Shown: positions 12,328-51,866, counted from the first letter of the stretch. The stretch is 64,000 bases of DNA from an uncultured virus (IMG/VR IMGVR_UViG_2061766007_000699) (IMGVR_UViG_2061766007_000699), one strand, 5' to 3'. The notes: generated from the sequence alone by a model not told the origin. A program made the numbers and translations.

Positions 12328-12332
12328 TACTA

Positions 12333-12421: not shown

Positions 12422-12428
12422 AAAGGAA

Positions 12429-12830: not shown

Positions 12831-12857
12831 ATCGTCTCCGTTGTTGAAGTTGAAAAG

Positions 12858-13156: not shown

Positions 13157-13160
13157 TTGA

Positions 13161-27397: not shown

Positions 27398-29671
27398 TTA
27401 ATACCTCTCAAAGAATCTGTCTGTCTTTCCACATTCGCAATCGGGGACATAGGATTCAGCGAAACTCATGTCATTGGTCTTCAAGTTCATGTAGTCAGTG
27501 CCGAAGATTTGAACAAGATACATCTCATCGCAACGCAATTCCGCTCTAGCTTTGTCCAATCCTTCGGAATACTTTGGCGGAGGGTCAGTGTAGCAATCGG
27601 GCACTTCAACTTCAACTGTGCATGGCGAAGCGATATTGAAGTCAGTATGAGGATTAGTGTCAACGGTTTCAACGCCATATTCAATGTCCAACACGGTAGT
27701 TCCTTGAACATTGGCGGCTCTGATGTAGTCGTTGGACTTCTGTTGTTCATAGTCCGTTTTCGGATAAGATTCGCCTATGGTCATCAGTCTGTAGATGGAT
27801 TCCGTTTTTGTCCCCGTTTTCAAATCGTGGATTTCGGAATGCACATCGTCTCTTCCGCTTGCATCAATTCTGATATAGTTCAAAGACGATTTCAACGGAT
27901 ACCAAACCTCGTCCTGTCTGATTCCGCTTGTTGGTATCTGATGGTCAAGTTCCAAGTTCACTTTGAAATGAGCACTAGTGTTTATGTTGTCCGTATACAA
28001 AGACCAAATCTTTTCGTTTCCGTTGTCTTCGTAATAATATGTCTGAATGCCCTGAACGGTGTATTCATCGTCTTCGTGTCCGAGATTTCTGAGAACTACC
28101 TTGTGAACGGGTTTCCCCTTTTCGTATGGGTTTGATGTGAAGAAAACGCTAGTGTATCCCAAAGAGTAGTCTGCCGTTGGATTGGTGTAGTTCATTGCGA
28201 TACTAGGATTTTCTCTCAATGTGTCAATGGCATTCACATCCACGAAAAGACCGTTGATGTCGGAATATCCTTCGCCATAGTAGTCAACATAATTCGGATA
28301 ATAGATGTTTCCGAAATAGGATTCCGTGTTTTCGTCTACATCCCCATTGATGGATTCTATCAGTCCTAGATGAACATATTTCAGAGTTGTTCCTGATGAA
28401 TAACCCTGTGCCGCAGTTCCGTTGAATATGAACTCATCTCCCGTTCCGCAACTGAATGCGGGGAGAGAAGTTGGCATCGTTTTCTGCAACATCGTATAGT
28501 TGTAGTTGTATTTGACGGTTATGTTGCTAGACGGAACATTGTGATTGTCTTCAACGGAATAATTATGGTAGTATCCTTGGAATCTCAAATATCTTCCGAA
28601 GTTTTGAGCCGTTTGGTGAGCGAAGAAGAGTTTGCTGTAGTCGCTGTTGAATCTGACAGTGCATTCGTCACCGCCTTCGGGATAGATGTTGTTTGTTATC
28701 TGTATTTTGCCCTGTTCCGATTCCAATGTGATGGTCTTGAATATGCACAGATTGTAGTCATCCATTCCGCTGTAGGTATCCTTTTCATACGGCCTGTATT
28801 CTATGTCAACGCCCGTTATAGGCAATATGTAGGACACATTCGTTCCCTCTAGCGTTGTTGACAATTTGTTTGGTTCAGTGTTGTAGTATTTGAGAAAAAA
28901 CGCTCCGTTGACCGAATTGGAATACCATCTCTTCGGTGCAAATTCAAATTTTCCGTATGAATCGTCTGACAGAATTTCGGGCTCAAAGTCCGTAACGGAA
29001 ACATGTTCGGTAGTTGAGCCGCCAAAACTTCCAAGTTGCAATTCGTAGTCACCTTCGTCAATGTGATGTGAACCCCATCTTCCGTTGGAAATGACCGAAT
29101 AGTCTTCGTTGCTTGGCAGAAAATACGAGTTCAAGTGCATACCGCCAAGCCCGTTGTTCTTGGCATGAAGATATTGCATCGTATCGTCAATTATGGGAGC
29201 AATGAGGCCGGGGATGTATTTGACATAACCGCTAGTGGCACTCAAGAGGGGGTAGTCTTTTCCATCTTCTCCCATGAGATAGAACTTCGTGGGGCCGTTT
29301 ACGGAAAGATTGAATGTGAATTTTCCGTTCAACAAGTCTTTCACGATTTTCTGACGATTAATCCTCACGCCCTTTATTGTGGACAGAATGATGAAGATAA
29401 TCATCAACAGAGAAAAGATGATGGTGATGAGTTTGTCAGCGGGGATGTTTGACAGACCGAAGTTCTTTCCCAAGTTCATGTTCACCGAAGGCACGCTGAT
29501 GTCAGGTGCTTCTATTTCAGGAGTGTCAATCTTTTTGTCTTCGGTTTCTATTTCGGAAATTCTAGTGGCGAGAGCACCGAACGAAAGCAGACCCGCAATG
29601 ACACCCGCCGCCCACTTCTCCGCTTCTTCTCTAGTCTCAAACTCGTTATACTTAGAGGAATTTACACTCAT
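27398..29671 (-). CDS. large protein with N-terminal hydrophobic segments, function unknown
   Basis: 757-aa ORF; hydrophobic LITIIFSLLMIIFIILSTI; within the baseplate cluster. Confidence 0.7.
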   Translation of the reverse strand: MSVNSSKYNEFETREEAEKWAAGVIAGLLSFGALATRISEIETEDKKIDTPEIEAPDISVPSVNMNLGKNFGLSNIPADKLITIIFSLLMIIFIILSTIKGVRINRQKIVKDLLNGKFTFNLSVNGPTKFYLMGEDGKDYPLLSATSGYVKYIPGLIAPIIDDTMQYLHAKNNGLGGMHLNSYFLPSNEDYSVISNGRWGSHHIDEGDYELQLGSFGGSTTEHVSVTDFEPEILSDDSYGKFEFAPKRWYSNSVNGAFFLKYYNTEPNKLSTTLEGTNVSYILPITGVDIEYRPYEKDTYSGMDDYNLCIFKTITLESEQGKIQITNNIYPEGGDECTVRFNSDYSKLFFAHQTAQNFGRYLRFQGYYHNYSVEDNHNVPSSNITVKYNYNYTMLQKTMPTSLPAFSCGTGDEFIFNGTAAQGYSSGTTLKYVHLGLIESINGDVDENTESYFGNIYYPNYVDYYGEGYSDINGLFVDVNAIDTLRENPSIAMNYTNPTADYSLGYTSVFFTSNPYEKGKPVHKVVLRNLGHEDDEYTVQGIQTYYYEDNGNEKIWSLYTDNINTSAHFKVNLELDHQIPTSGIRQDEVWYPLKSSLNYIRIDASGRDDVHSEIHDLKTGTKTESIYRLMTIGESYPKTDYEQQKSNDYIRAANVQGTTVLDIEYGVETVDTNPHTDFNIASPCTVEVEVPDCYTDPPPKYSEGLDKARAELRCDEMYLVQIFGTDYMNLKTNDMSFAESYVPDCECGKTDRFFERY

Positions 29672-29675
29672 TATT

Positions 29676-30885
29676 CTACCTCATAGCAGAACTTTCCTGT
29701 AATTCTTGCCCAATGAGATTATCCACGGAGCTAAACGCTCCATCCTTATCCTCAGACAGCAAGCTAACCCCGTGTCCCCCACGGTTATCTATTATATTCA
29801 AACCTTCATCTAAAATGTTCCTAGCCGCATTGACATCCCTATCGTGATGACAATGACAGCTNNNNNNNNNNACAGTCCCATTCTCTGATGCCTAGATTCC
29901 AATTTTCCATCTTATAGCCACAATGGTTACAGGTCTTGCTAGTTGGAGACCATCTGTCTATCACTATAAGTTCTTTTCCATACCATTTGCATTTGTATTC
30001 TAGTTGCCGTCTGATTTCTCCAAAGGAAACATCAGATATAGCACCCGCTAGTTTATGATTTTTAAGCATACCTAAAACATTGAGGTCTTCAATGCAAATA
30101 ACATCATTGTCTCTAACCAAATTTGTAGTCAACTTATGGATGAAGTCTTTTCTCTTGTTGCCTAGTTTTTCATAGGCGATAGCAAGTTTGACACGGGTTT
30201 TTTCCCTGTTCTTACTACCTTTCTTTCGTCTAGAAAGTTGTTTCTGTAACATTCTTATTCTAGCTTGCACTTTCTTGGCGAAATGATTGTTCTTAATCTT
30301 CTGACCGTCAGAAGTGACGATTACATCTTTAAGTCCAAGGTCAACACCTACACATGCGCCTGTGTGTTGAAGTTGCTGAACTTCAACATCACAGCAAATG
30401 GAACAGTAATACTTTCCACTAGAACTTCGTTTGATAGTCAGGTGTCTTATCTTCTTAATGCATGAAAGGTCTTGGTGAGACCTGAACTTGACAACACCAA
30501 CTTTAGAGATAAATATACCGCCTTCTCTAATCACCTTATCTATCTTCTCTGTAGGCATATTTGCACAAGTTGTATAAGACCCCTTCTTAGATTTCTTCTT
30601 AAACTTGGGATGACCTTTCTTAATACCTTTCTTCAGATTCCTAAACCAATTCTTGTATGCTACCTCTGCGTTTTTAGCCGCTTCTTTTATAGCTCTTGAA
30701 TCGCATTCCTCCATCCATGGATATTCTTCTTTGAAAAGCCATGCTTTTGGTGTGAAGGACACACCGTGNNNNNNNNNNNNNNNNNNNNNNNNNNNNNNNN
30801 NNNNNNNNNNNNNNNNNNNGTTGAACATAGTCGCTTGGCCCTTTGATGGGTATAGTCTGATTTCAATGCCTTTCGTAACTATCAT
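29676..30885 (-). mobile_element. tnpB: TnpB (IS200/IS605-family RNA-guided nuclease), copy 1, no adjacent transposase; two N-gaps
   Basis: GVDLG, CIEDL, PTSKTC..CG, and post-gap HDRDVNAARNI; true stop at 29676. Confidence 0.9.
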
Positions 30886-30925
30886 ATTCTATATTTATGC
30901 ATCTCTAAAGAATTTTCATTCCTAC

Positions 30926-31644
30926 TTAGACATCACTTCCTCCAAGACCCATCACACCCGCCATGTTGCCGCCATGTGGAACGCCCGTGAACAGACAGTT
31001 GGGACACACATTGGGTTGCCATACCTGAGTGGTGCCGTCTTTTGACGGTAGCTTGATTTTCTGACCGTATATGCTGACATCGTTGGCCGCATTCATCACG
31101 ATTTCGCCTTCAGAGCGAATCTCCATGTTCTTGGCCGCAAAAATTTTCATGTTGCCGTCTCTGTCTATTCGGATGAAAGACCCTGACGAATGCTGTAGCT
31201 CCATGCTCTTTGAAGTCCTGTTGATTCTGAAGTAGTCTCCGTTGTCCGTTTCAAATAGCACCATCGTGTTGGGGTAGTCTTCCTCAATGTCTGACACCAT
31301 GTTCTTCACCGAACTAGGAGTGAGGACTTTAGTGGTGTATTTCGGTAGGTAGATGTCTCCGCAATCAAAGTAGACATTGACTATGGAATCAACAGGAGGA
31401 ACAGTGAACGAGCCGATTGTAGACCCTATGAANNNNNNNNNNNNNNNNNNNGCAAATTCTCAGTTGGAATGCCGTCAAACACACCGAAGACCATTATTCT
31501 GCACCGACCGATTTTTTCGGGGTCATTGTTGTCAACGATTTTGCCGGGGTAGAATTGGTGTTTTTCTTCGTTGACTGATTTCCTAGTGACCGCTTCCTTG
31601 AGAACAGAAGCGAAGTCTAGCCCCATTGACTCTTGAACTTCCAT
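30926..31644 (-). CDS. baseplate central spike, gp5/gpV-like OB-fold, no lysozyme domain (split by an N-gap)
   Basis: GKIVDNNDPEKIGRCRI, VPPVDSIVNVYF, beta repeats HSSGSFIRID, terminal CPNCLFTGVPH. Confidence 0.8.
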
Positions 31645-31691
31645 TGTTATGCGACCTCAATGTCGTTTTTAACTCTGTATTATTTAGTTGG

Positions 31692-31720
31692 AAAAGGGAG
31701 AGACTTTCGCCTCTCCCTTT
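31692..31720 (-). terminator. intrinsic terminator followed by CTAAATA promoter (31681)
   Basis: aaagggag...ctcccttt inverted repeat. Confidence 0.65.
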
Positions 31721-31737
31721 GATTTCAATCTTCCGAA

Positions 31738-32772
31738 TTAGTGAAACCGTTTCTTGGAGAAAGGACTGCGCATCTTGCGAGATTCCTGTAGCTTGTGATT
31801 TCTGCGTGCCTGCCTGACGGCTTCCTTCATCATGCGGCTCTTACGGGCTTTGGAATGATTGAAGGATTCATCACAGTTGTATCGTGGGCCCTTTATACCA
31901 CGCTTGGTAGGAGCATACTTTTCGCTAAGCCGTCTAAAATGACGGGGCTTGCGACCTTCGTGGAGCATTAGCTTGTGAGAAGGCTTGCGTGATTCATCAA
32001 CATAGTCAAACCGCTTAAAGGTAACTATATCCATGAATGCGGGGGCTTCAACAATAAAGTTTTCTATAATTCTTCCGTTGACTCTTTTTTTATCTGAAAA
32101 AACAAAACCTTGGATTCCTCGCCGTCTTAATGTTGAGCGAGCATCCGCCAATGAAGGTTGGTTTAGCCATGATAAGTATGATTTCCCAATAGCTGACTTA
32201 GCTTTTGTAGCTATGAAATCTGCTGACACATCCACATTTCCATTTTCATCATATTGTATAATTTCATAGCTTGTATCATACTTAATTTGGTCATCATCAT
32301 GATTATATGGAAAGGTCAACAAAGTTAGTCTAGTTTTGGCGGGTTTTTTGTGTTCAAAGTATATGTCTCTTATAACACTCACACAATCATTATGACCGTG
32401 TTTATCCCTAACTTTACAAAATTTACCAACCACAAATCCTTCAGGACTTTCAGCCATTTCAGTTAGCATTGCGGAATCGGTTTCCTTTGATTCACCGAAA
32501 TCAATTTCATCGGCAACTTCAACATCTTCTTCATCATAGAATCTACGCTTGGGTCTGTCTTCAAAGTCTAGTTCAGCTTCCTCTTCTTCGTCTTCGGAAC
32601 CAAAGTCAATGTCCTCTTCTTCCTCTTCATCGCTGAGATACGCTTCAGCGATTTTGAGGGTTTCTTCGTCTAGAATCATGTCATCGTCAAGGTCACTGAT
32701 GATTTCTTCTTCGTCATCGGAGCCTAGCAAGAGGTCATCCTGTAGCTCGTCCTTGTCAAATTCCTTTTCCAT
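31738..32772 (-). CDS. modular protein: acidic N-terminus, AT-rich central module, basic ES/LxE repeats
   Basis: DESRKPSHKLMLHEGRKPRHFRRLSE...RMMKEA...LQESRKMRSPF. Confidence 0.7.
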   Translation of the reverse strand: MEKEFDKDELQDDLLLGSDDEEEIISDLDDDMILDEETLKIAEAYLSDEEEEEDIDFGSEDEEEEAELDFEDRPKRRFYDEEDVEVADEIDFGESKETDSAMLTEMAESPEGFVVGKFCKVRDKHGHNDCVSVIRDIYFEHKKPAKTRLTLLTFPYNHDDDQIKYDTSYEIIQYDENGNVDVSADFIATKAKSAIGKSYLSWLNQPSLADARSTLRRRGIQGFVFSDKKRVNGRIIENFIVEAPAFMDIVTFKRFDYVDESRKPSHKLMLHEGRKPRHFRRLSEKYAPTKRGIKGPRYNCDESFNHSKARKSRMMKEAVRQARRNHKLQESRKMRSPFSKKRFH

Positions 32773-32808
32773 GTGATGTTCCTTTGTGTTTGATTGTTGA
32801 ACTCTATG

Positions 32809-33102
32809 TTATCGTCTGTGGAATCTGCGCATACGAGATTCACGGAGAGTGCGGCCACGGAGCTTGCGAGATTCTTTAATATCTTCATCTTCAATTTCCT
32901 TCAAAAACTCTTCAAGTTCTTCAAGTTCACCGTCAGCTTTTGACCCCTCAAGGCTATTCATATATCCCCACCACAAATCTACAATACTGTCATACCCGTC
33001 AATCCAATCCATATAAATGCTATCATGAGTTTCAGACAACTTGTCCATTTTGTTTGACAGATAATTCCATTTCTTCTTCTGTTCTGCGTTCATGCTCACC
33101 AT
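32809..33102 (-). CDS. small protein ending in the ES..RGRTLRES linker
   Basis: IKESRKLRGRTLRESRMRRFHRR; conserved leader at 33103-33144. Confidence 0.7.
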   Translation of the reverse strand: MVSMNAEQKKKWNYLSNKMDKLSETHDSIYMDWIDGYDSIVDLWWGYMNSLEGSKADGELEELEEFLKEIEDEDIKESRKLRGRTLRESRMRRFHRR

Positions 33103-33140
33103 CCTTTTTGAGCGACATTGCCCAAACTTTCTATACCTAT

Positions 33141-34427
33141 TTAGTTGCGCACCAAGTCATCCATAGAGCCTTTGGTCTCAGACTCGTTGTAGCCGTCTCT
33201 GAAACAAAGATACACCTCATTCATGGCATCTCTGTTCAAGGCCAAGATAATGCCCCCAATCACATAGTTTCCACCTTCATTCAGCGGTTTCATAGCCCTT
33301 TTCCCCGTCCCCTGTATGTCCACATTGACCTTGGAAAGCAAACCGAAATTCTGAAAGGTGCTCACGCTTGCGCCATAGACTACCAAGCATTCGGAGAAAA
33401 TGCGATTCAAAATCATGGTATTCTTGACAGTAGACCTGAAGTAATTGTCATGGATGGAATAGAGGTCAGAGGCGAAAGTGTAGGTTTTCGTCACATCCCC
33501 ATTCTGATTCTTGTTGATGTTGCTGTAAAGAGAAAGCGTGGTCTTTGGAATGTTGCTGAAAGTTTCCTTTTCCAATTTGCCTGTATCGTTGGAAAACCAA
33601 GTCATCGTTGAGGTGTATCCGCCTTCCATGGCGTTCATGAATCCTGAAAAATCCTTGAACTCGTAGTTGTAGTAGGGCACCACAATGTCCGAATGCGACT
33701 CGCCTGTCCCTATCATCCCCGAATCCACGGAAACAGGAGCCACAGTCCCCGTCAGGTCAAAGACCATTGATATGCGGTTTTGCGACACAATGTTCTCGTA
33801 TATGCCCTTGTAGTTCAGCCGCCCTTCAAAGTCCACGAAACACACAGGACAGTCCTTCTCCGAAATCCACGAATGTTTCACGGTGTTGGTGATGTAGTCC
33901 ATGAATGTCATGTTCAGACAGCACCAATTCATTCGGTCATGTGAATCGGTCACGAATATCTTATCCGAACTGAAACCGCACCTCTTTCCTATTTCCTTCA
34001 CGGTGTCGGAGAAGTTGACCTTTCCGAAAGCGACCGATTTGAGCCCCGAAAACAGACTGACATTGTTGTAGATGGCCTTCAGGTCTATCACATTCAGACC
34101 GCCTGACTTTGAGTCAATGGATTTCTTCTCAAAGCTGACAATGGAGAACGGAACATCGGAAACCGTCTTCTTCGTTTCGCCTGATTTCCGTATAGTCACC
34201 TTGATTTCCTGACCGCAAAACAGAGGGGTGACCACATCAAACTGACCATTGTCTATGATGGTCATGGAGAGTGTTGGCAGAAACTCAAAGACCGTCTCTC
34301 TGATGTAGAAGGAAATGATGTTGTTGGGGTTTACGATTTCGTCATTGATAGTAACCACAGCCGTGAAGTTCTTTTCACCTGTGCTTTGAACGGGCTTGTT
34401 TTGAGCTAGACTTTTCTCGCTACCCAT
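33141..34427 (-). CDS. baseplate hub protein (gp27-like)
   Basis: size and position between gp53-like and gp5-like genes; GNYVIGGI near the C-terminus. Confidence 0.55.
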   Translation of the reverse strand: MGSEKSLAQNKPVQSTGEKNFTAVVTINDEIVNPNNIISFYIRETVFEFLPTLSMTIIDNGQFDVVTPLFCGQEIKVTIRKSGETKKTVSDVPFSIVSFEKKSIDSKSGGLNVIDLKAIYNNVSLFSGLKSVAFGKVNFSDTVKEIGKRCGFSSDKIFVTDSHDRMNWCCLNMTFMDYITNTVKHSWISEKDCPVCFVDFEGRLNYKGIYENIVSQNRISMVFDLTGTVAPVSVDSGMIGTGESHSDIVVPYYNYEFKDFSGFMNAMEGGYTSTMTWFSNDTGKLEKETFSNIPKTTLSLYSNINKNQNGDVTKTYTFASDLYSIHDNYFRSTVKNTMILNRIFSECLVVYGASVSTFQNFGLLSKVNVDIQGTGKRAMKPLNEGGNYVIGGIILALNRDAMNEVYLCFRDGYNESETKGSMDDLVRN

Positions 34428-34732
34428 TAGTATACCTTGTATTGGTCAAGATAGGACTGAATCACAGTCGCATCGGGGATTAGGATTTCCTGTCCGCCCC
34501 ATAGCTCGTTCCAAGGGTCATCAATCTTGTTGAACTTCAGCAATACCCACCACAGGGATGAATCGCCCAATAGCCTCTTGGACAGGAGGTCAGGTCTACC
34601 CACTTCCACACCCATCACGATAGCCCTAGCCGCAATGGATGGCCAATACGCTCTGTCCGTATCGTTGGTGAGCAAGTCTCTGTCGCCAACTTCGGAGTCT
34701 ATGGAAATGTAATCGTCTCTGTTTGCCATCAA
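34427..34732 (-). CDS. gp53: baseplate wedge protein, gp53-like (LysM-like)
   Basis: GRPDLLSKRLLGDSSLWWVLLKFNKIDDPWNEL..GQEILIP. Confidence 0.8.
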   Translation of the reverse strand: MMANRDDYISIDSEVGDRDLLTNDTDRAYWPSIAARAIVMGVEVGRPDLLSKRLLGDSSLWWVLLKFNKIDDPWNELWGGQEILIPDATVIQSYLDQYKVY

Positions 34733-35803
34733 TTAATCTCCCATGTCATATAACACGGGTGTCTGTTGAGTTTCATCATATTTCTTCTTAATAAGATTTG
34801 AAACCCTCTTTCTGTCCTCGGTCTCATCATTGAACTTCGGTTGTTCTTCTCTTTCAGTCTCTGTATCGTCAATGTTCATCATAACGACATAATTGCCTAC
34901 ACCATCAGCCTTGAACCATTCAATCACATCACCCCTAGTAGGCTCAATGACAGGCGAGAGATTGATGGAGTAGTCAATATAAATGGGCATTGTGAACGAA
35001 TCCACTTCGTTGATGAAATGCCGTCTTTCTCTAGAGAATGTTGCGTTGAAACTGTTTAGCACCAAGTTTTTCAGTCTGACTAGATTGCCAACTTCCACAA
35101 TGAAAGTTTTGTCCAAACCATTCATTGCGCTGAAGTAATCCGCTATGCTAAAGTCTTCCGTATTCCTTGAACGCATCCATTCGCCAACAACATTTGAATT
35201 GTCTTCAGCGTTGAGATTTCCCCATAGATTTCTGAATACCTGTGCTATGTTCCCCGCTGTCCCCGTAGCCAAGTTCGCAAAATAACCCAAAACACCTGTG
35301 TTGTCGGCCTGATTCTTAATTCGGTCAATGAGAACTTTCCTAGTCGCTTCATCCATCTTTGGATATGTTGCGGCCACGAAGAACATGAATGGCATAATGG
35401 AGTTGTATGTTCCGTTTTCAAAAACTCTGAAATCAAAAGAGAAATCGTTTGTCTTTGAGCCCTGATACACCTTTGCGTGCTGAAGATTTCCTGACCTAGA
35501 CACATGGTCATAGCCCATGGTTCTTTCCGATTCTTTGATACCCGCCGCTACTCTCTTCGCACCTGAGCCCCCGTTGAAACTGCCAAACTCTGTATACTGA
35601 GCCGTTGCGCTGAAATTGAACGGTTTTGTTAGAGGAGCCTTATCAATAACCGTAGTGAGATTTGAGAACATACCTGTGAAATTGCCATACATCGTCTTTA
35701 TGGTAATCCAATCCTCATTGCCTTTTGCATCACCAACACCGTGGGCGGTGTAGTATTCAGGCCCGTTGAACGGTGTGTTTTTTGCTACTTGTATTCGGCT
35801 CAT
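34733..35803 (-). CDS. tail tube initiator / baseplate cap, gp48-like
   Basis: YQGSKTNDFSFDF and PIYIDYSINL; position upstream of gp53. Confidence 0.55.
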   Translation of the reverse strand: MSRIQVAKNTPFNGPEYYTAHGVGDAKGNEDWITIKTMYGNFTGMFSNLTTVIDKAPLTKPFNFSATAQYTEFGSFNGGSGAKRVAAGIKESERTMGYDHVSRSGNLQHAKVYQGSKTNDFSFDFRVFENGTYNSIMPFMFFVAATYPKMDEATRKVLIDRIKNQADNTGVLGYFANLATGTAGNIAQVFRNLWGNLNAEDNSNVVGEWMRSRNTEDFSIADYFSAMNGLDKTFIVEVGNLVRLKNLVLNSFNATFSRERRHFINEVDSFTMPIYIDYSINLSPVIEPTRGDVIEWFKADGVGNYVVMMNIDDTETEREEQPKFNDETEDRKRVSNLIKKKYDETQQTPVLYDMGD

Positions 35804-38521: not shown

Positions 38522-38524
38522 GCG

Positions 38525-41022: not shown

Positions 41023-41035
41023 CTCTCCTCCTACA

Positions 41036-41206
41036 CTACAACATGGACTTCAGGTCAGTCATGTTGTTCTTCTTGTCCTCTCTAGCTTCTATCTTGTCCT
41101 GTATTTCCTTCTTATACATGGAAAGATATGTGTCCACTTCCAAGTAGGTCAAGTGGTCTGATTCTAGTGGACTGACATGCAACAATCTCGCCAAGAAATA
41201 TTGCAT
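41036..41206 (-). CDS. gp51-like baseplate hub assembly / tail chaperone
   Basis: MQYFLARLLHVSPLESDHLTYLEVDTY pattern; directly after the gp26-like gene. Confidence 0.55.
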   Translation of the reverse strand: MQYFLARLLHVSPLESDHLTYLEVDTYLSMYKKEIQDKIEAREDKKNNMTDLKSML

Positions 41207-41219
41207 CTCGTAAATCTGT

Positions 41220-41966
41220 CTAAGCGGAATACTTGGGTAAAAAGAAATTCCCCCGAAAGGAAAGGGGTATTTCAACCCTACCTCCGCACTTCTTGCAATC
41301 CACGGTCAGATTGGGCTTGACCTCAACATCGGCCTTGTTCATCACATCAACTAGTTGCATGAAACATTCGGGATTCATGTTGGTGATGTAATTGTATGCT
41401 TCTTCCTTCTTCAGTTCCTTGCCGTTCAAGGTATGAAGTCTGACGGCCATCGTGAAGATGTCTCGGTCAACGCCTTCCGCTAGATGTTCCATCATGGCTT
41501 CGTCCTTTATCCGAATCATGTCAAGGGTAACGGTGTCATCGCCAATCTTGTATTCCACATCGGCACCACAGTCTTCGGGGACACCCTTGATGGAAACACA
41601 GGACATGTCAAAGCCGTAAGTGGATTCCTCGCCACATTCGGGACAGACGAAGTTCACTTCAAACTTTTCCTTGCCGAAGGTGTTGGCTCGTTGCCACAGG
41701 ATGAGATAGAGTTTGTCAACGAGAATGATGTCATCAACGGCAACGCCTATCACCGAATCCTTGAGAACGGAACGGATGACATCGTTGAAATTGTCCCCGT
41801 CCATGCTTGCGAGTTTCTTCAGCTCAATGACCTTCAGAGCCCTTGAATAGATTTTCGTTCCGCTCTTGTAGAACTTTCCACAAGACGGCAGACCTTCTAC
41901 CAACTGATAACCTGAAGGGATTTCCGTTTTTTCTACTTCTTCAACTAGTTTCATGTTCTTTTTCAC
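41220..41966 (-). CDS. gp26: baseplate hub assembly chaperone, gp26-like
   Basis: LPSCGKFY, DKLYLILWQR, CPECG, CKKCG, terminal NFF. Confidence 0.75.
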   Translation of the reverse strand: MKKNMKLVEEVEKTEIPSGYQLVEGLPSCGKFYKSGTKIYSRALKVIELKKLASMDGDNFNDVIRSVLKDSVIGVAVDDIILVDKLYLILWQRANTFGKEKFEVNFVCPECGEESTYGFDMSCVSIKGVPEDCGADVEYKIGDDTVTLDMIRIKDEAMMEHLAEGVDRDIFTMAVRLHTLNGKELKKEEAYNYITNMNPECFMQLVDVMNKADVEVKPNLTVDCKKCGGRVEIPLSFRGNFFLPKYSA

Positions 41967-41995
41967 CTCAATGTGAAATGGTTAACTATTCAAAT

Positions 41996-42520
41996 CTATT
42001 TATCAAACACCCCCGCCTTCTCCAATACCTTCGTTATCTTTGCGACATTGAAAGGTAATGAAAACAACACAGTGTCCAAATGCTTGCACAAGAGAGATGG
42101 AATGCCCAAGTTGATTTCAGGCTCTGTGAGATGGGTGAGAGTTTCCTCTGCGTTCAATTTGGTGAGTCTGTAGGCAGAGCCCCAATAACGGTGAGCGGGG
42201 CATGTGCAAGTAACCTTGATGTCTCCCATCACGGCTTTCTTGACCATCTGAAAATGCGTGAGACCGCCTTTCTTGATTATCCTGTCCAAGTCAAGCAATC
42301 TGACCTTTTCGTCATACCAAAGACCCGGCACCGTTCCTGAGCGACACTTGAAGAGAAGACAGCCGTTCTTGTAACCCTTGAACATGGCTTTCAGTGGCTT
42401 TGTCCTAGATTTGGTCTTTGGGTCTACACCGTTTCTGAGTTGCTTGTAGTTGGCTTCGTCAAGAACCATCCTGAAGAAGGAACCACATTTGCTACACTTG
42501 GTGTATCTTTCGTTAATCAT
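41996..42520 (-). CDS. SWIM-type zinc finger protein
   Basis: VTCTCPAHRYWG ... LCKHL. Confidence 0.7.
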   Translation of the reverse strand: MINERYTKCSKCGSFFRMVLDEANYKQLRNGVDPKTKSRTKPLKAMFKGYKNGCLLFKCRSGTVPGLWYDEKVRLLDLDRIIKKGGLTHFQMVKKAVMGDIKVTCTCPAHRYWGSAYRLTKLNAEETLTHLTEPEINLGIPSLLCKHLDTVLFSLPFNVAKITKVLEKAGVFDK

Positions 42521-42528
42521 ATCTGTAT

Positions 42529-43113
42529 TTAGCTAGGAAACGGCACATCAAAGGTCTTCTCTAGAGATTCTGCCATGAAAGACAGAGACCTAGTAACAGT
42601 AGCGGCAGATTCATAACCATAGGACATGCTATCAGCTGAAATGTAGTGGACATTCTTGAAGGTGTATCTGACCTTGGCATCAGACAAATGAGTGTCATCT
42701 TTGCCAACAGGTGCACCGAAAGCATAGACCTCTATGTCTCCCAAGTTGCCATCCATAAGCATGATGGCTTCATCAGGGTCAGAAAGAGTGTGCTCAATCT
42801 TCGTAATGAGTTTTTCCACATCATAGTTGTTGGTCTCTTCCAACTTGATTTCCAAATTGATACCGTTGTATTCTTCAGGCAAAGACCACAATTTGACAGC
42901 ACCAACGGTCTTAAGAGATTCCGTTCTATACTTCTTCTGTTCGCTGAAGGTAATGCTTTGAGCGACATGGAAACTGAGTTGGTCTTGGTCGGTCAAGCCT
43001 TCAGCATTCGTGTCTGTAACGACATCAAAGTTGAACTTGACGAGAAACATGTTCTGATAAGCGACATTCTTATCATTGTAGAATCTGTCAAACAATTTCT
43101 TCGGAATGAACAT
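42529..43113 (-). CDS. tail-tube-fold paralogue
   Basis: C-terminal TFKNVHYISADSMSYGY...LSF; tandem with two clearer tube genes. Confidence 0.55.
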   Translation of the reverse strand: MFIPKKLFDRFYNDKNVAYQNMFLVKFNFDVVTDTNAEGLTDQDQLSFHVAQSITFSEQKKYRTESLKTVGAVKLWSLPEEYNGINLEIKLEETNNYDVEKLITKIEHTLSDPDEAIMLMDGNLGDIEVYAFGAPVGKDDTHLSDAKVRYTFKNVHYISADSMSYGYESAATVTRSLSFMAESLEKTFDVPFPS

Positions 43114-43124
43114 GCTTGCTTACC

Positions 43125-43751
43125 TTATTCCAACTCTAGAGAAGCTACATCCACATTCTCAATTATCCTGTAATACTGATAGAGGAAAGAAACTGTGTAG
43201 TTGATTTTGCTACTGCTCTCATAGGTCAGTTCAGCTGATGAAATGGATGTGGGGAATGCCTTGTAAAACACTATCTTTTTGTCAAGTGGCTCACCATTGA
43301 GACCAAGCAAAGTCAGATGAAGATTGGCCGTATGGGAGTCCAATACGGTGTTTTCCTTGTGAATTTCATCTTCTCCGTTCGCATTGAAGATACTAGAAAT
43401 CCAATCGTTGAAAGCGGTGTATATCTTCTGACTTTCAAATTCGTCAAAGGTCAGGTCTAATCGCTTTTCGGATGTGTCTTCAGGAGATGGCAACTGAATC
43501 TTGAGACCCATGAACTTGGACTCGTGATTGCCTATGGAGAGATTTGGTATCTTGGCGGAGCGGACATAATAGGAAACACCATCGTCTTCCGTTGAAAGAA
43601 AATCAATGGTCTGTTGGTCTATGGCACTTTTGCCCCAATCTTCATATCCCTGTGTGCCTGTAGCGATTGGGTAGATTTCCAAATACCACAGATTGTTCTT
43701 CTGCGGGTCTTTGTTACCCCAATGAATTTTTGAAATGTGGTGCTCCATCAA
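43125..43751 (-). CDS. tail tube protein paralogue (gp19/gp54-like)
   Basis: QKNNLW, SAKIP, LTFDE, FYKAFPTSISSAELTY...FLYQY. Confidence 0.75.
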   Translation of the reverse strand: MMEHHISKIHWGNKDPQKNNLWYLEIYPIATGTQGYEDWGKSAIDQQTIDFLSTEDDGVSYYVRSAKIPNLSIGNHESKFMGLKIQLPSPEDTSEKRLDLTFDEFESQKIYTAFNDWISSIFNANGEDEIHKENTVLDSHTANLHLTLLGLNGEPLDKKIVFYKAFPTSISSAELTYESSSKINYTVSFLYQYYRIIENVDVASLELE

Positions 43752-43762
43752 GGCACCTCATA

Positions 43763-44362
43763 TCATTCCTTAGGAACGGTGATATAGGACTCGTTGGCGT
43801 TGACGATTTCAAACCAATCGTATTGGAAAGTGGCATTGTAGGAAACCTTGGAACTGCCATCGTAACCAAGAGAAGCATCGTTCAGAGAAGTGATGAAGGC
43901 ATTGTGGAAAATGATTGCCTTGCTGAGGGGATTGGAGGCCAAGTCAGTCATGCCCAACTTGATTTCAGTGGAATACTTGAAAGAATTTCCATCTCTAGTC
44001 CCCAACTTGGAGGCGGCAAAACCGTGTCCGCCATTGTTGGTGTTTTCAACTGAATTGAAGATGAGATTGACCCATTCGTTCAAAACCGTGTATACCTTTT
44101 GGTCATCGTGCTCGTCAAAGGTGATGTCCAATGTCTTGTTGCTCATGTCTTCGGTAGCTGCATAGTTCGCTTGCATACCCATGAACTTGGTATTCAGAAC
44201 AGGAATGGTTCGGCCCGGTATCTTTGCCGTCTGAGCCCTTATCGTGAGACTCTTGAGGTCAGGAACATCGTTCAAATCACCGAAATTGACTACCCACAGA
44301 TTGTTCTTCTGAACATCGGAAAGAGACCCCAAGGTGCTTGCAATGTGATAATTCTGTGCCAT
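43763..44362 (-). CDS. gp19: tail tube protein, gp19-like
   Basis: QKNNLW, AQTAKIPG, ITFDE, FHNAFITSL...FQYDWF; CTAAATA at 44392. Confidence 0.8.
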   Translation of the reverse strand: MAQNYHIASTLGSLSDVQKNNLWVVNFGDLNDVPDLKSLTIRAQTAKIPGRTIPVLNTKFMGMQANYAATEDMSNKTLDITFDEHDDQKVYTVLNEWVNLIFNSVENTNNGGHGFAASKLGTRDGNSFKYSTEIKLGMTDLASNPLSKAIIFHNAFITSLNDASLGYDGSSKVSYNATFQYDWFEIVNANESYITVPKE

Positions 44363-44394
44363 TGTATTCTCCTACAAAAATCTTCTACCTTTAT

Positions 44395-45948
44395 TTAGTT
44401 CGCTGACTTCATTCGTGTTACCGATTCGTTCAATGACTTGATGTTGTAGAACATCCGCTTGAGGGCATGAACGGAATAGCTTTCCTTTTTGGTTTTGCCG
44501 TCTTCTTCGGTTTCCCACTCATGCTTCATGGCATCGTCCAAAATCTTTCTGAAAATGGTTTCGTCCAAAGTGGAATTTTTCTGTTGGATATGCCCTCTGA
44601 TACGATTAAGAAAACTTCTAGCATCATCGTCATTTGACTTGTAATCGTAGAGATTTCGTTCAAACGACTTGGTGTCAATCTTTTCGGGTGTGGTTATCAC
44701 ATCCCTAAACCAAGCCAATGCCTTTGAAGTTCCGTTTTGAATGCCCTGAAGACCGTCATAGTTATACAGTTTCACGAGCAAATCGTTGTCTATGCGACTC
44801 ACACCCGCATTGGTCAAAATCTTCTTGGCTCTGTTCACCCATTCTGCTTCGTTTGACAGGTCTCCTAAAACGCTGTGTCCAAGAATGAGAATAGCCGCCA
44901 AAACGCAAGCATTCTGTTTTTCACGCTCGGTCTTCTGACTAGCCTCGCCTTCCTTTCTTTTCTCTTCTTCTTTGTCCTTGACCATCGCATCAACGCTCTT
45001 GGACATTTCGTTGTAAAGGTCTTTGTCCACATTGCGCAAATCGTCTAGAAGATTCTTTGCCTTGTTGGCATCCATTTCGCCAACTTGGTCTATCAGATTC
45101 ACATAGTCCTTGCGGAAATCTTCATACTGCTTGTTGATGATTTTCTTGCAGATTTCCCACACTTCCCTGATGTCATCCATCTTGAGATTTACTCGTTTGT
45201 CTCCATAGCTCTTGAGGATTTCCTTTTCGTCCGTGCTGAGTTTTCTAGTAAACCCTCCCATGGCATCGTAGTCCAAAATCATTTTCGGTGTGATGGATTC
45301 CTTGCTCTTGATGTTGACTAGAAATCTCAGAAGGTCGCTGTCCGCCTTGAGTCCGTCACTCTTGGTGTTGTCGGTTTTCTTGCTTTCGGAAACATTTTTG
45401 GACTGTTTCTCTTCCTCGTGCTTGTGGTATTGATTGGCAATGTTTTCCTCAACGGCATCCTTTTTCTTCATTATCTCGTTGGCTCTAGTATTCCAAATAT
45501 TGTATACCTTGAGCTGATTCAAAGTATCTCTGTTGACCTTCTTGGCAACTTCGTCAATCTTCTCGTCTCCTACGGAAAATTCCAAAATGGTGTCAACTAC
45601 ACCCGGCAAGTCATTCTCAGGATTCTTGGAGAGAGCGAGTCTCATCTGTCTCATCTTCTCGGAAATGGCTCTGACATCCTTGTTCTTGCTGTTCTTCATC
45701 TTGTTGGCAAACAGAGAGGATATAATGCTGAAGATACCCTTATCGGAGGAGCCAAATCCTCTGTCCTCGCCCTTGAAGACATCGCCCGTCTTGGCAAAGT
45801 TGATTACACCCTTGGCGAACAGGAGACCCGCCCCCGCTACCAAAGCCAAAGCCCCTAGACCGACATTCTTCAACACACCTTCGTTCAGCACATCCTTGTT
45901 GATGGCCTTGCTTTCTCTCAATACCTGTCGCAATTCTCGTCTATTCAT
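44395..45948 (-). CDS. hypothetical protein with N-terminal LRES/LNEG sites and a hydrophobic segment
   Basis: MNRRELRQVLRESKAINKDVLNEG then VGLGALALVAGAGLLFA. Confidence 0.7.
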   Translation of the reverse strand: MNRRELRQVLRESKAINKDVLNEGVLKNVGLGALALVAGAGLLFAKGVINFAKTGDVFKGEDRGFGSSDKGIFSIISSLFANKMKNSKNKDVRAISEKMRQMRLALSKNPENDLPGVVDTILEFSVGDEKIDEVAKKVNRDTLNQLKVYNIWNTRANEIMKKKDAVEENIANQYHKHEEEKQSKNVSESKKTDNTKSDGLKADSDLLRFLVNIKSKESITPKMILDYDAMGGFTRKLSTDEKEILKSYGDKRVNLKMDDIREVWEICKKIINKQYEDFRKDYVNLIDQVGEMDANKAKNLLDDLRNVDKDLYNEMSKSVDAMVKDKEEEKRKEGEASQKTEREKQNACVLAAILILGHSVLGDLSNEAEWVNRAKKILTNAGVSRIDNDLLVKLYNYDGLQGIQNGTSKALAWFRDVITTPEKIDTKSFERNLYDYKSNDDDARSFLNRIRGHIQQKNSTLDETIFRKILDDAMKHEWETEEDGKTKKESYSVHALKRMFYNIKSLNESVTRMKSAN

Positions 45949-45955
45949 GTTTCAC

Positions 45956-46417
45956 CTATGCGTTTTTGAACTTGAGCATAGTGCCTTTTGTAGGAGTTTC
46001 GGCTGTGTTGCCCCCTGAGAAAATCACCCTGAAATCTGATTCGGTTACGGCAACATTGTCACCGAAATCGTAATAGGCAATGTTTTCGCCATCGTCACCC
46101 GAAGTAGTGGCTATCAGGACACCATGTGATTTGTTGACCGTAATCGTGCCCCCTTCGGCATAATTCACATAGTTGGCCTTGACAACGGTGTTTCCTTCCG
46201 TATCAGGCTCGGACACTTCTATTCCGCTGATTGGCACGGCTAGTGTGTTTCCGTTGCTGTCTTCTGCGAAATTATCGCTGAAGGCGGATGTAGCACCTGT
46301 ATTTTTCTGACTCTCTTTGATTTCTTCTTTCACCACGATAGCATAGGGCGCATTGGTGAAATAATCTTTGCCATGCGCCACACCGTTCAAAAAACTGTTG
46401 AATACGAAATTAGCCAT
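45956..46417 (-). CDS. putative virion structural protein
   Basis: MANFVFNSF...IAYYDFG beta-rich pattern; CTAAATA at 46454. Confidence 0.55.
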   Translation of the reverse strand: MANFVFNSFLNGVAHGKDYFTNAPYAIVVKEEIKESQKNTGATSAFSDNFAEDSNGNTLAVPISGIEVSEPDTEGNTVVKANYVNYAEGGTITVNKSHGVLIATTSGDDGENIAYYDFGDNVAVTESDFRVIFSGGNTAETPTKGTMLKFKNA

Positions 46418-46436
46418 GTTTGTTCCTCAATGGATT

Positions 46437-46991
46437 TTAAACATTGTCTTCCTTATTTAGCTTAACATCTTTGTCAGACCGCTCGTTGACCACGGTATAA
46501 TCAGCATTAATGGAATTGAGACTAGAGCCTTTCTTGGCATCTTCCATCATCTTGAACAGGTCAGCAGACGATAGATTGAGACTAGCCTTCACATTCACAT
46601 TCGGCTGATTGGACTTGGAGACCTTGTGCTCAAACTTTTCACGCTCCAATTTCAGTTTTTCCTTGTTCATGGTCAACTTGTTCATTTCCTTGATACACTC
46701 TAGAATCGTGTTGGAGAGCGTGGAATAGACTTCATACATGCTAGCCTTGGTGCCAATCTTGATGTCTGACTTGAGCACCTTGGCCACATCTTTGGCCTCA
46801 GCCATCAGTTCAGCGATTTTCCCCGCAAGAAACTCTCGCTCTTCCTCTATGGATTTGTCTTTCTTGGCCATCTCAACTAGCTCAGTTCTAGCTACCAAAT
46901 CCGTGGATTCCTCCGTAGCGGGGGCCTCCTCAAACTTGGTGCCTAGAATTTCGTCTAGCCCTTCAAAGCCTGTCTTAGTTTCCTCTTCCAT
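46437..46991 (-). CDS. terminase small subunit, gp16-like
   Basis: follows gp15; ASMYEVYSTL and SSADL motifs. Confidence 0.65.
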   Translation of the reverse strand: MEEETKTGFEGLDEILGTKFEEAPATEESTDLVARTELVEMAKKDKSIEEEREFLAGKIAELMAEAKDVAKVLKSDIKIGTKASMYEVYSTLSNTILECIKEMNKLTMNKEKLKLEREKFEHKVSKSNQPNVNVKASLNLSSADLFKMMEDAKKGSSLNSINADYTVVNERSDKDVKLNKEDNV

Positions 46992-47869
46992 TACATATCC
47001 TCTTTGGCTGAAGTCATGTAGTTGACGAAGCCCAATTCATCCGTTGTAATCACGGGCTGACTGATGAATTTGCCGTCCAACTCGCCCTTTGACGAAGTGC
47101 CTGTCATCTCCGTTCCTGACACGCTAGGCCACAGGACACCATCGGTTTCATAGTCCTCGCCTAGATTGAAGTCAGGCTCATAACCGTAATGCATCTTGAT
47201 TTTCTCAATGACACCCGCATTTCCAACAGGCTTGTAAAACCAATAATCGGCTTTGAAATTCATGGTGCCGTTCACATACCGTTTTCCCTCTTCTTCCACA
47301 GGCTCGGTGAACTCTGTTTCCAATCCCTCCAAGGTAACGCACACATTTCTGTTCAAATTGTGTGAGTTGAACTCTTTGACCTGAAGATAGCATGATGGGT
47401 TAAACCAAGGCGCAATCTGTTCCACAATCTGAGTGAAGTCCATGAAGGATTCCGTTTTGATGTGCAAAGAAAATGATGTGTCGCATGGTGTTGGCATCAT
47501 ATCCGTAATTACACGCTGAGGGTCTGAAGCATCGGTCAGCTCGTTTACGGTGTCAAAGTATTCGGGGTTTGAAAGGAATCTACGGACTCGTGAAGATGTA
47601 GACCTGTCAGCGGCAAACGAAAAACCGTTTAGCATCACGGCCATCGTTGGCAACTGAACATAGTATCTCTTCATGGAGCCGTCTTCCGTTCTCCTCTGAA
47701 AATACTTGGACATGGGGCCGAACTTGATTGGCACCAAGATGTCCTTGGAGACATTTCCTTCGTCATCGTATCGCTTGACATGAATGTTGCTGAACGCACT
47801 CATGAACGCAACTAATAGATTGCGAATGCTGTGATTGAAAAAATACGGCTGCTTGGAACTTACACTCAT
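46991..47869 (-). CDS. gp15: tail sheath stabiliser / terminator, gp15-like
   Basis: YFFNHSIRNLLVAF...VPIKFGP...LPTM...QIVEQIAPWFNP. Confidence 0.85.
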   Translation of the reverse strand: MSVSSKQPYFFNHSIRNLLVAFMSAFSNIHVKRYDDEGNVSKDILVPIKFGPMSKYFQRRTEDGSMKRYYVQLPTMAVMLNGFSFAADRSTSSRVRRFLSNPEYFDTVNELTDASDPQRVITDMMPTPCDTSFSLHIKTESFMDFTQIVEQIAPWFNPSCYLQVKEFNSHNLNRNVCVTLEGLETEFTEPVEEEGKRYVNGTMNFKADYWFYKPVGNAGVIEKIKMHYGYEPDFNLGEDYETDGVLWPSVSGTEMTGTSSKGELDGKFISQPVITTDELGFVNYMTSAKEDM

Positions 47870-47871
47870 AA

Positions 47872-49080
47872 TTATATCTCCTGTAATTCTTGCCCAATGA
47901 GATTATCTACGGAGCTAAACGCTCCATCCTTATCCTCAGACAGCAAGCTAACCCCGTGTCCCCCACGGTTATTTAAAATTGATAGACCTTCATCCAAAAT
48001 GTTCCTAGCCGCATTGACATCCCTATCGTGATGACAATGACAGCTAGGGCATTCCCATTCTCTGATACCCAAGTTGAAGTCAGTCATCTTATAACCACAA
48101 TGGTTACAAGTCTTGCTAGTTGGAGACCAACGGTCAATGATGACCAATTCTTTTCCATACCATTTGCATTTGTATTCTAGTTGCCTTCTGATTTCTCCGA
48201 AGGAAACATCAGATATAGACCCCGCCAAGGAATGATTCTTCATCATTCCTTGCACATTCAAGTCCTCTATACAAATGATGTCGTTCTCCATCACTAATTT
48301 ATGAGTTGCTTTATGGATGAAGTCTTTTCGTTTGTTGCTCAGTTTTTCATGAGCGATGGAAAGACGAGTGTTGGTTTTCGCCCAATTCTTTCCACCTTCT
48401 TTTCGCCTAGAAAGTTGCTTTTGTAACATTCTTATTCTAGCCTGTGCTTTCTTGGCGAAATGATTGTTCTTAATTTTCTGACCGTTTGAAGTAACTATGA
48501 TGTCCTTCAAACCTAGGTCTACACCTATACATGCGCCTGTGTGTTGAAGTTGCTGAACTTCAACATCACAGCAAATGGAGCAGTAATACTTTCCACTAGA
48601 ACTTCTCTTGATGGTAAGGTTACGAATCTTCTTAATGCTTGAAAGGTCTTGGTGTGCTCTAAACTTGACTACACCAACTTTGGAGATGAATATGCCTCCT
48701 TCTCTAAGAACCTTATCTATCTTCTCTGTAGGCATATTTGCATTTGTAATGTAAGACCCCTTCTTACTCTTTTTCTTGAACTTGGGATGACCTTTCTTAA
48801 TGCCTTTCTTCAGATTCCTAAACCAATTCTTATATGCTGTTTCTAAATTTCTAGACGATTCATTGATAGCTCTTGAATCGCATTCATTCATCCATGGATA
48901 CTCTTCTTTGAAAAGCCATGCTTTTGGTGTGAAGGATACACCGTGCTCTCTATAAAGTTCTTCTTTGATTTCAAGGCAAAGATTGTAAGTAAAACGGGCC
49001 GCTCCTATGTTCTTGTTGAACATATTTGCCTGTTTCCTGTTCGGATACAATCTTAATTCTATACCTTTCGTAACTATCAT
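47872..49080 (-). mobile_element. tnpB: TnpB, copy 2, complete, no adjacent transposase
   Basis: LRLYPN..Q HTH, RuvC D (GVDLG), E (CIEDL), D (DRDVNAA), CNHC/CPSC zinc finger. Confidence 0.92.
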
Positions 49081-49123
49081 TTTCAATTATTTATGTGGAA
49101 CTAGGTGTATGATTTCTCATTTT

Positions 49124-51440: not shown

Positions 51441-51866
51441 TCAAATCATATCCTCCAAAACATTCAGCGTATTTTTCAGGTTATCTAGCGCATTCACCTT
51501 AATCTTGTGCTTGATTTCGTAATTGTGATTGTGCGGTATCACATCTATGAAAACATTGTGAGGGGTTATGTCCTCCTCATACGCATCCAACAGGCCCCAT
51601 GATTTCAGACAGAATACGATAGACTTCTTTCTCGTGTAGTCCTCTTCGGTCATGTTGTTGTAGAAGTCTTTTCGGTTTATCAGGCGGAATATCTCTTTGA
51701 AATGGAATACAAACCATCGCCCTTCGTCTTCCATCAGATAGCAAGATGGATACATGACGGGCTTGTTCTTTGAAAGGACACCCATTCTAGTCAAGGTCTC
51801 TTTGATGACATTGACATCCACTTTGGGGAAAACCTCTAGAGGGTTTTCAAAGAACTCTGCAATCAT
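51441..51866 (-). CDS. regA: translational repressor RegA
   Basis: IKETLTRMGV...YPSCYL...FHFKE...LKSWGL. Confidence 0.85.
   Translation of the reverse strand: MIAEFFENPLEVFPKVDVNVIKETLTRMGVLSKNKPVMYPSCYLMEDEGRWFVFHFKEIFRLINRKDFYNNMTEEDYTRKKSIVFCLKSWGLLDAYEEDITPHNVFIDVIPHNHNYEIKHKIKVNALDNLKNTLNVLEDMI

Follow-up and report, generated by a model that had tools for sequence, protein, structure and literature searches.

A TnpA-less TnpB element in a T4-like rumen phage probably restarts the late genes it interrupts from its own right end

The virion module of an uncultured rumen phage (IMG/VR IMGVR_UViG_2061766007_000699), analysed here as a stretch of 64,000 nucleotides (nt; hereafter the window), holds two tnpB genes, each followed by a late gene. 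We propose that each tnpB is carried by a ~1.26-kb element of the IS200/IS605 type (IS1341-like) that lacks TnpA and would have entered a late structural gene precisely at the junction of its ATG and codon 2, and we consider it likely that the interrupted gene is restarted from a Shine-Dalgarno (SD) sequence and an ATG of the element's own. The two downstream genes, although unrelated, would share their first 15 letters because the element carries a replacement ribosome-binding site and start codon in its last bases. In the literature searches that we made, we found no account of a start codon donated by the right end of a TnpB element.

Results

Limits of the element

A first-pass annotation of the window had placed the shared 15-mer at the start of both genes, and its positions are correct: ATGAGTGTAAATTCC (29671..29657, minus strand) opens the open reading frame (ORF) of a 757-aa protein, and ATGAGTGTAAGTTCC (47869..47855, minus strand) opens gp15. 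With up to two mismatches allowed, exactly these two sites match in the window. Shuffled sequences gave a mean of 0.34 matches and at least two in 3 of 100 shuffles, and the count taken by itself is only modestly unusual; that both 15-mers stand 2–4 nt behind a tnpB stop and that both are start codons is far beyond chance. The last 94 nt of the two tnpB genes (29788..29695 and 47972..47879) likewise differ at one base, as had been claimed, and contain CTCAT and GAATTACA.

The 3' stretch is 98% identical between the copies, compared with 63–97% across the remaining gene (60-nt windows). The homology continues past ...GAATTACAGGA, where, after a 14-nt indel (extra in copy 1), it resumes as the 26-mer GAG[G/A]TA[G/T]AAT[A/T]ATGAGTGTAA[A/G]TTCC, identical at 22 of 26 positions, and ends abruptly at TTCC. 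As judged by this alignment, the 15-mer forms the end of a single continuous stretch of homology. At the left end, the homology sets in immediately behind an upstream ATG (GGAATG/AAAATTC... and AAAATG/AGAAATC..., where the slash marks the limit), in each case behind the stop codon of the upstream gene. The sequences flanking the elements are unrelated between the copies. The elements and the genes they adjoin are:

47855..49117, minus strand: element copy 2, 1263 nt; left end AGAAATCATAC..., tnpB, right end ...ATGAGTGTAAGTTCC; delimited by homology with copy 1 and by contigs that skip the element
29657..30916, minus strand: element copy 1, 1260 nt as written, a length made uncertain by two N runs; delimited by alignment, both junctions being free of N
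47855..47869, minus strand: 15-mer of copy 2, the last 15 nt of the element; ATG at -15..-13, UGUAA at -10..-6, GUUC at -5..-2 and C at -1
29657..29671, minus strand: 15-mer of copy 1, with A in place of G at -5
46991..47869, minus strand: gp15, tail sheath stabiliser, 292 aa (PF16724, E 2.9e-43); N-terminus now MSVSS followed by KQPYFF...
27398..29671, minus strand: 757-aa late-module protein, no family; N-terminus now MSVNS followed by SKYNEF...

Both element lengths are multiples of three, which may be chance (1 in 9); the frame depends on the last 15 nt only.

Empty sites in tnpB-free relatives

At the gp15 locus, contigs from three runs of three independent metagenome studies (X3, X6 and X8) have an empty site. 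They join 47845/47852 to 49116–49123, skipping copy 2 (1270–1272 nt) and carrying 7–9 other letters instead, and they align over 0.8–3.4 kb on each side at ~3.3–3.9% divergence (136/3445, 48/1355 and 27/807 differences, respectively). On the coding strand the three alleles read TAG AAA ATG AGT CAG GCT TAT, ...ATG TCA CAA CCT TAT and TAG AGAA ATG TCG CAG CCG TAT; gp15 starts with MSQ(A/P)Y in them, and none contains the 15-mer. Adding the element to an empty allele yields the occupied site with no target-site duplication, and the gp15 site is polymorphic for presence and absence of the element among relatives with ~96.5% flank identity. The old ATG of each gene lies stranded at the left flank:

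49118..49120, minus strand: ancestral gp15 start codon; in the empty contigs ...TAG AAA ATG is followed by codons for Ser-Gln-Pro/Ala-Tyr; probable 3' end of the target-adjacent motif (TAM), AAATG
30917..30919, minus strand: ancestral start codon of the 757-aa gene (GAATG); joined to the present codon 6 (TCT AAG TAT AAC...) it gives MSKYNEF..., of the same length as MSSYNNW and MSNYNDF in relatives

An early idea that the old start and three further codons were retained at the left flank (ATGAGAAAT + TCC...) was dropped, as the empty alleles join directly after the ATG.

Protein relatives agree with the DNA. For gp15, P0001 (98% identical) starts with MSQAYFFNH, and P0002 and P0003 contain M(A/S)QPYYFNH; for the 757-aa protein, the starts are MSSYNN in P0015 (94%), MSNYND in P0016 (51%), MSSYNN in P0017 (52%) and MSQPWH in P0018 (33%). 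MSV(N/S)S is absent from all seven of the closer relatives of the two proteins (7/7), which are four residues shorter than the window proteins. Whether tnpB-free relatives begin with MSV(S/N)S, the check that the first-pass annotation had suggested, can thus be answered in the negative, at the DNA level for gp15 and at the protein level for both genes.

These observations separate the two readings that had been offered for the 15-mer. If it had been part of the phage genome beforehand, as a preferred target present at both sites with the element landing just upstream, both insertions would be expected to adjoin the same 15-mer, as they do; this reading is barely credible, since the three tnpB-free gp15 alleles lack the 15-mer and use the left-flank ATG, the seven protein relatives lack its translation, and the 3' part of the 15-mer corresponds to the conserved terminus of TnpB elements that lie away from gene starts (see below). 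The same alleles and relatives bear out the other reading, in which the start codon and the codons next to it come from the element end. As far as the sequences allow, the 15-mer is the element's own last 15 nt, neither phage sequence nor target site.

A probable donated translation start

Ahead of each new ATG, and within the element, stands an SD sequence:

47878..47881, minus strand: GGAG, SD for gp15, 8 nt before the new ATG, in the internal loop of the predicted stem 4
29679..29682, minus strand: GAGG, SD for the 757-aa gene, 7 nt before the new ATG

SD-like motifs precede 39 of the 60 genes of the window, against a background of 19.5%. By reading, no other in-frame start was found near the 5' end of either gene. 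The last 35 nt of copy 2 contain, in this order, the end of tnpB, GGAG, the tnpB stop within the predicted tetraloop, the ATG and four codons. The new ATG lies exactly 15 nt from the element end, so that the reading frame is kept in any gene that the element enters directly behind the start codon. The interrupted gene would then be read as M-S-V-(N/S)-S followed by the old codon 2 onward, from an ATG five codons from the element end, and the old ATG would remain at the left flank as the end of the likely TAM.

Right-end terminus and predicted omega-RNA

The right ends of eight distant TnpB elements (34–57% identity, from viral contigs and bacterial genomes: L002, L003, which is the same as L004 and L024, L005, L023, L026, L045, L046 and L048) have the form hairpin-G-GTA(A)GTTCA(C/T), and the tail of the 15-mer, GTAA(G/A)TTCC, matches this terminus (GTA(A)GTTCAC). 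Among 57 loci with both flanks, the terminus motif occurs 10 times in 20,007 nt at the tnpB 3' end (a 351-nt zone) compared with 8 times in the other 216,615 nt, a 13-fold enrichment. Comparison of the L005 right end, CCATGAGT-(12 nt)-GTAAGTTCAC, with ATGAGT-GTAAGTTC-C in the window indicates that the 15-mer is the right-end terminus of the family minus half of the last hairpin and one A. In addition, L024:1500-1720 holds a 5'-truncated tnpB remnant with the last ~31 codons and the whole omega-RNA region; the sequence to the right of this remnant is identical to the right flank of the full-length element in L003/L004, as in a decayed copy at the same kind of site.

For the omega-RNA of ISDra2, PMC10097598 describes a pseudoknot between -102..-106 and -6..-2, in which -103..-105 pair with -5..-3, a stem-4 tetraloop at -20..-17, and a predicted but misleading pairing of -30..-32 with -5..-3. 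With a scaffold end after TTCC, copy 2 would reproduce this layout: the last stem would consist of UUACA/UGUAA plus AUA/UAU with the tetraloop at -20..-17, GUUC would occupy -5..-2, and the 5' pseudoknot strand would be the loop of an upstream hairpin:

47958..47961, minus strand: GGAC, loop of the first hairpin (CCGUG-GGGGA-CACGG), -107..-104; predicted 5' pseudoknot strand

In L003, L005 and L023 the GGAC loop is at -106..-103, and in L002 at -108. The scaffold is accordingly predicted to extend through ...GUAAGUUCC, with the guide following, and the 3' end of the element would also be the scaffold end, made up of the 3' half of stem 4, the pseudoknot strand (G/A)UUC and one C. The assignment of stem 4 and the pseudoknot draws on homology and geometry, not on thermodynamics or covariation.

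The first-pass annotation had drawn a different pseudoknot, in which CTCAT and GAATTACA pair with ATGAG and TGTAA(N)TTC in a-b-a'-b' order and the variable base is a bulge. These pairings can be drawn on paper and are thermodynamically weak. The pairing of GAATTACA with TGTAA(N)TTC survives as stem 4 plus a decoy extension like that of ISDra2; the CTCAT/ATGAG helix is unsupported, as CUCA(U) pairs elsewhere in longer folds and a 5-mer complement is expected by chance. By homology, the real pseudoknot partner would be the GGAC loop ~105 nt upstream, and the variable base would be the first base of the pseudoknot strand.

Two other accounts of the 15-mer can be weighed against these right ends. 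One, in line with the earlier suggestion of a scaffold that stops before the ATG, has the scaffold end at ...GAATTACAG(GA) and makes the 15-mer the guide or part of it, one copy having seeded the other by guide-directed retargeting. TnpB guides do derive from the flank, and in a gap-free comparison the near-perfect 94-nt identity stops at about that point. Once the 14-nt indel is admitted, however, the homology runs on to TTCC (22/26); the GGAC loop would fall at ~-92 instead of the ~-106 of relatives and ISDra2, a geometry that fits only an end after TTCC; the family-wide GTA(A)GTTC terminus, to which the 3' part of the 15-mer is homologous, would be lost; and the empty sites lack the 15-mer. 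We regard this account as highly improbable.

In the second account, the 15-mer (or the 26-mer) would be the 5' end of an earlier host gene, copied along with the element and without a role in the guide RNA. The right flank of the 757-aa gene is indeed unusually divergent, with 7 of the 14 residues after Met differing from P0015 compared with 39 of 738 elsewhere, and P0017, at 52% identity overall, has its first 16 residues in common with P0015, which looks like co-conversion from a foreign donor. Such co-conversion is nevertheless compatible with an element-borne start, GTAA(G/A)TTC matches the terminus of the eight distant elements in other contexts, and the scaffold length fits only when the 15-mer stretch is included. 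Carry-over of flanking sequence therefore seems quite unlikely to us.

The tnpB genes

47872..49080, minus strand: tnpB copy 2, 402 aa, intact; PF12323, PF01385 and PF07282 all match
29676..30885, minus strand: tnpB copy 1, ORF interrupted by N runs; C-terminal tail ...GQELQESSAMR*

TnpB of copy 2 matches PF12323 (1.1e-12), PF01385 (1.1e-23) and PF07282 (1.4e-25) as well as phrog_506 (4.8e-123), and it aligns with ISDra2 TnpB (8bf8) over the full length (E 5.8e-79). Its catalytic motifs GVDLG, IEDL and HDRD are aligned with GVDVG, TEHL and HDRD of 8bf8, and the zinc-finger cysteines are present as CNHC...CPSC. The RuvC triad we take to be D191/E278/D361. The overall identity of the two copies is 86%. 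Copy 1 contains N runs at 29863-29872 (10 bases) and 30770-30819 (50 bases), the first of which stands opposite 3 bases in copy 2, breaking the frame as written; with these runs its ORF cannot be judged. Further N runs lie near 26.8 kb, 38.97 kb and 40.0 kb. All these runs, those of copy 1 included, resemble scaffold gaps or stretches masked at repeats, and the X1 contigs also break within tnpB.

By reading, neither tnpB ATG has an SD of its own. The stranded ATG opens a mini-ORF upstream of each gene: in copy 2 it is followed by 8 codons and TAA (49091-49120, minus strand), 10 nt before the tnpB ATG, and in copy 1 by 3 codons and TAG (30905-30919, minus strand), 19 nt before it. Since the tnpB ATGs lack their own SD, tnpB may be translated by re-initiation after these mini-ORFs. 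The sequence CATAAATA stands 8-10 nt ahead of the tnpB ATG in both copies (30892-30899 and 49088-49095, minus strand) and in the distant relative L023; a T4-type late promoter at this sequence was considered but is not supported, as ATAAATA shows no enrichment (5 in the window compared with 6.3 expected).

Guide, candidate TAM and mobility

The sequence after TTCC differs between the copies, and its first ~16 nt, corresponding to old codons 2–7, would be the guide:

47839..47854, minus strand: predicted 16-nt guide of copy 2 (old gp15 codons 2-7); homology ends at 47855, and the guide would follow the scaffold as in ISDra2
29641..29656, minus strand: predicted 16-nt guide of copy 1 (old codons 2-7 of the 757-aa gene), by the same reasoning

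The corollary drawn earlier, that the guide would be 5' coding sequence of the phage gene, is retained in this prediction with a different starting point, old codon 2 instead of the 15-mer.

Three left junctions are available, GAATG, AAATG and ACATG, and the TAM likely ends in ATG (candidate A/C-ATG). The third is a loose end of X6 at 49114, which reads ...CAC TAG GAGAACAAC ATG GGG/AATCATAC directly behind an SD-ATG, the left-end junction itself being ...TAGGAGAACAAC ATG GGG/AATCATAC.

No Y1 (HUH) TnpA was found among 48 ORFs (Pfam) or 54 ORFs (PHROGs) of the window. A left-end hairpin is likewise missing, as judged by folding energies of -1.5 and -2.0 kcal/mol (z +0.45 and +0.47; 126 and 137 of 200 shuffles fold equally well). 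These two negative results make RNA-guided cutting followed by recombinational copying likelier than peel-and-paste transposition. In a mixed infection, the TnpB-omega-RNA complex would cleave the genome of a relative lacking tnpB at the point between ATG and codon 2, and the element would be copied into it during recombinational repair, an RNA-guided form of homing resembling that of the free-standing homing endonucleases of T4.

Other contigs carry seven TnpB clusters (81-97% identity). The 14-kb contig of the relative X3 that shows the empty gp15 site terminates, 6134 nt past 44401, in a tnpB left end that matches 49110..49003 and is near another late-gene boundary, at ~38.3-38.5 kb in window terms. 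The other copies in relatives and the TnpB clusters are consistent with ongoing mobility. Close TnpB relatives (P0019-P0036) have two types of right end, ...GQELQEI in P0019 and P0020, as in copy 2, and the commoner ...GQELCACSTNEVELC(I/M/V), which is known as protein and from two 12-30-nt loose ends (47884 and 47885; X3 and X6).

Genomic setting

The genes at 26-51 kb are all on the minus strand and form the T4-like virion module that the two tnpB genes interrupt. Its products, as assigned by PHROGs and Pfam, include baseplate wedge and hub, tail tube paralogues, the gp15 tail sheath stabiliser, head-tail connectors, the large terminase and the tail sheath. A RegA-like translational repressor (51441-51866, minus strand; phrog_242, E 1.1e-23) lies within the late module and adjoins a third tail-tube paralogue (51873-52493), the other two being at 43125-44362. 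Elsewhere, an ORF resembling a free-standing homing endonuclease (13416-14381, minus strand; phrog_655, E 4.5e-36) adjoins three tRNA genes (11874-13230, minus strand: Leu-CAA, Gly-TCC and Met-CAT); it adds a further type of selfish nuclease to this genome. An Rfam search of the whole window at gathering thresholds returned three tRNAs only, and neither an omega-RNA family nor an intron.

The window DNA is nearly complete in two runs of one bovine gut metagenome sample, its probable origin, and partly present in 18 further runs; the 20 runs among the matches listed belong to 11 studies. Megablast of both loci against 50,697 GenBank phage records gave no match, and at the protein level GenBank phages yielded at most 27% identity for gp15, at most 40% for TnpB and no match for the 757-aa protein. 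In IMG/VR, the 37-nt right-end pattern had 0 matches and the TnpB queries reached at most 40% and 48% identity; a gp15 locus there (50% identity, start MKRSGWPYF, no adjacent tnpB) was set aside as too distant for an empty site. Among genome contigs, the top match was L026 (57% identity), whose element lies away from any start codon. A match of the 21-nt right-end pattern in metagenome contig L025 was rejected as chance, being an unrelated GC-rich bacterial coding region on read-through.

Discussion

Weight of the evidence

Several observations speak against the proposed element or parts of it. First, the empty-site DNA covers the gp15 site, and the 757-aa site is reconstructed from protein N-termini. 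Second, the candidate TAM rests on three left junctions, of which that of X6 deviates in the first three element bases (GGG instead of AGA), within the first 9 nt of the guide the three empty alleles have 4, 5 and 2 mismatches, and no currently cleavable target was seen. Third, the proposed stem 4 of copy 2 is no stabler than shuffles (the 35-nt hairpin has -3.8 kcal/mol, z -1.0; 28 of 200 shuffles fold equally well), and the copies are nearly identical in the scaffold region, leaving no room for covariation; the scaffold end, RNA processing and guide are all predictions from sequence. Fourth, relative to the distant elements, the A at -2 and the compact stem-4 hairpin are absent, which could impair function, and copy 1 has A for G at the pseudoknot edge, 14 extra nt and an N-broken ORF. 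Finally, a TnpB at 84% identity (P0021) and P0017, with its unextended MSSYNN start, are both reported from a 7200-nt contig; if the two are adjacent, some family members may restore the gene differently.

Some of these points would also suit dead relics, that is, immobile and non-cutting elements in which the exchanged start persists as a fixed scar and tnpB is undergoing decay or has been domesticated, for example for regulation. The missing TnpA and left-end hairpin, the remodelled stem 4 with its lost -2 A, the N-broken copy 1, the lack of a matching target and the lack of an SD at tnpB all fit such an account. The copy-2 ORF and its catalytic motifs are intact, however; the scaffold region is 98% conserved compared with 86% overall; the gp15 site is polymorphic at ~96.5% flank identity, with other sites occupied in relatives; and there are seven TnpB clusters at >80% identity. 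We therefore consider dead relics unlikely, while according them some weight.

Relation to known systems

The locus is best described as a TnpB/omega-RNA system of the IS1341-like kind, for which a homing lifestyle is suggested. It resembles ISDra2 (IS200/IS605; PDB 8bf8, 8exa and 8h1j) in full-length protein similarity and, as predicted here, in a scaffold that overlaps the tnpB 3' end, in the position of the pseudoknot partner and the stem-4 tetraloop and in a guide taken from the right flank. In contrast to ISDra2, the phage elements lack TnpA and a left-end hairpin, their likely TAM ends in ATG (TTGAT in ISDra2), stem 4 would hold the SD and start codon, the element end is in frame with the host gene, and the carrier is a lytic-type T4-like phage. 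Like IS1341-type TnpB-only elements, they would be expected to spread by cutting an empty orthologous site, followed by copy-in. A 2026 review (PMC13565253) treats 'transposon non-restorative homing' as theoretical for phages and cites a plasmid experiment; the locus described here differs in that it occurs naturally in a phage, is matched by empty alleles and has its own built-in repair for the gene it interrupts.

As with the free-standing homing endonuclease genes of T4-type phages (seg and mob), the elements lie amid conserved late or essential genes, are variably present in close relatives, and have divergence beside the insertion that is compatible with co-conversion; unlike in seg and mob, recognition would be by guide RNA and TAM instead of protein, and the cassette lies inside a coding start, not in an intergenic region. 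IStrons (a group I intron combined with IS200/IS605 or IS607) provide another precedent for a TnpB insertion made harmless to the host gene. They splice from RNA, whereas here the Rfam search found no intron and harm would be avoided by the donated translation start.

A possible conflict over start codons

The empty gp15 alleles keep M-S-Q-(P/A), yet they differ at most synonymous choices (AGT/TCA/TCG, CAG/CAA/CAG and GCT/CCT/CCG), and their mismatch at the guide start (2-5 of 9 nt) contrasts with ~3.5% flank divergence. The divergence next to the insertions, including that of the 757-aa protein described above, may reflect either target escape or co-conversion from a foreign donor, which are inseparable here. 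It is conceivable, though we hold it only tentatively and think it somewhat doubtful, that the start codon is the TAM or part of it and that the locus acts as an RNA-guided gene drive occurring naturally in rumen phages, with an arms race visible at the guide seed. If the ATG does serve as TAM, the host gene could not mutate it without destroying its own start codon, the element would have to carry a portable SD and ATG in omega-RNA stem 4 for the gene to survive, and escape would be open only by recoding codons 2-4, as the wild tnpB-free alleles appear to show.

Significance

An element built in this way would mean that a guide-RNA nuclease can persist in the densest, essential part of a lytic phage genome without killing the phage. 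A single 35-nt stretch would close tnpB with its stop codon, provide a ribosome-binding site and a start codon, contribute the first codons of a tail protein and form the guide-proximal portion of the omega-RNA. An ATG-ending TAM, if confirmed, would offer a compact tool for targeting gene starts. The matched natural occupied and empty alleles make 'non-restorative' RNA-guided homing in phages directly testable.

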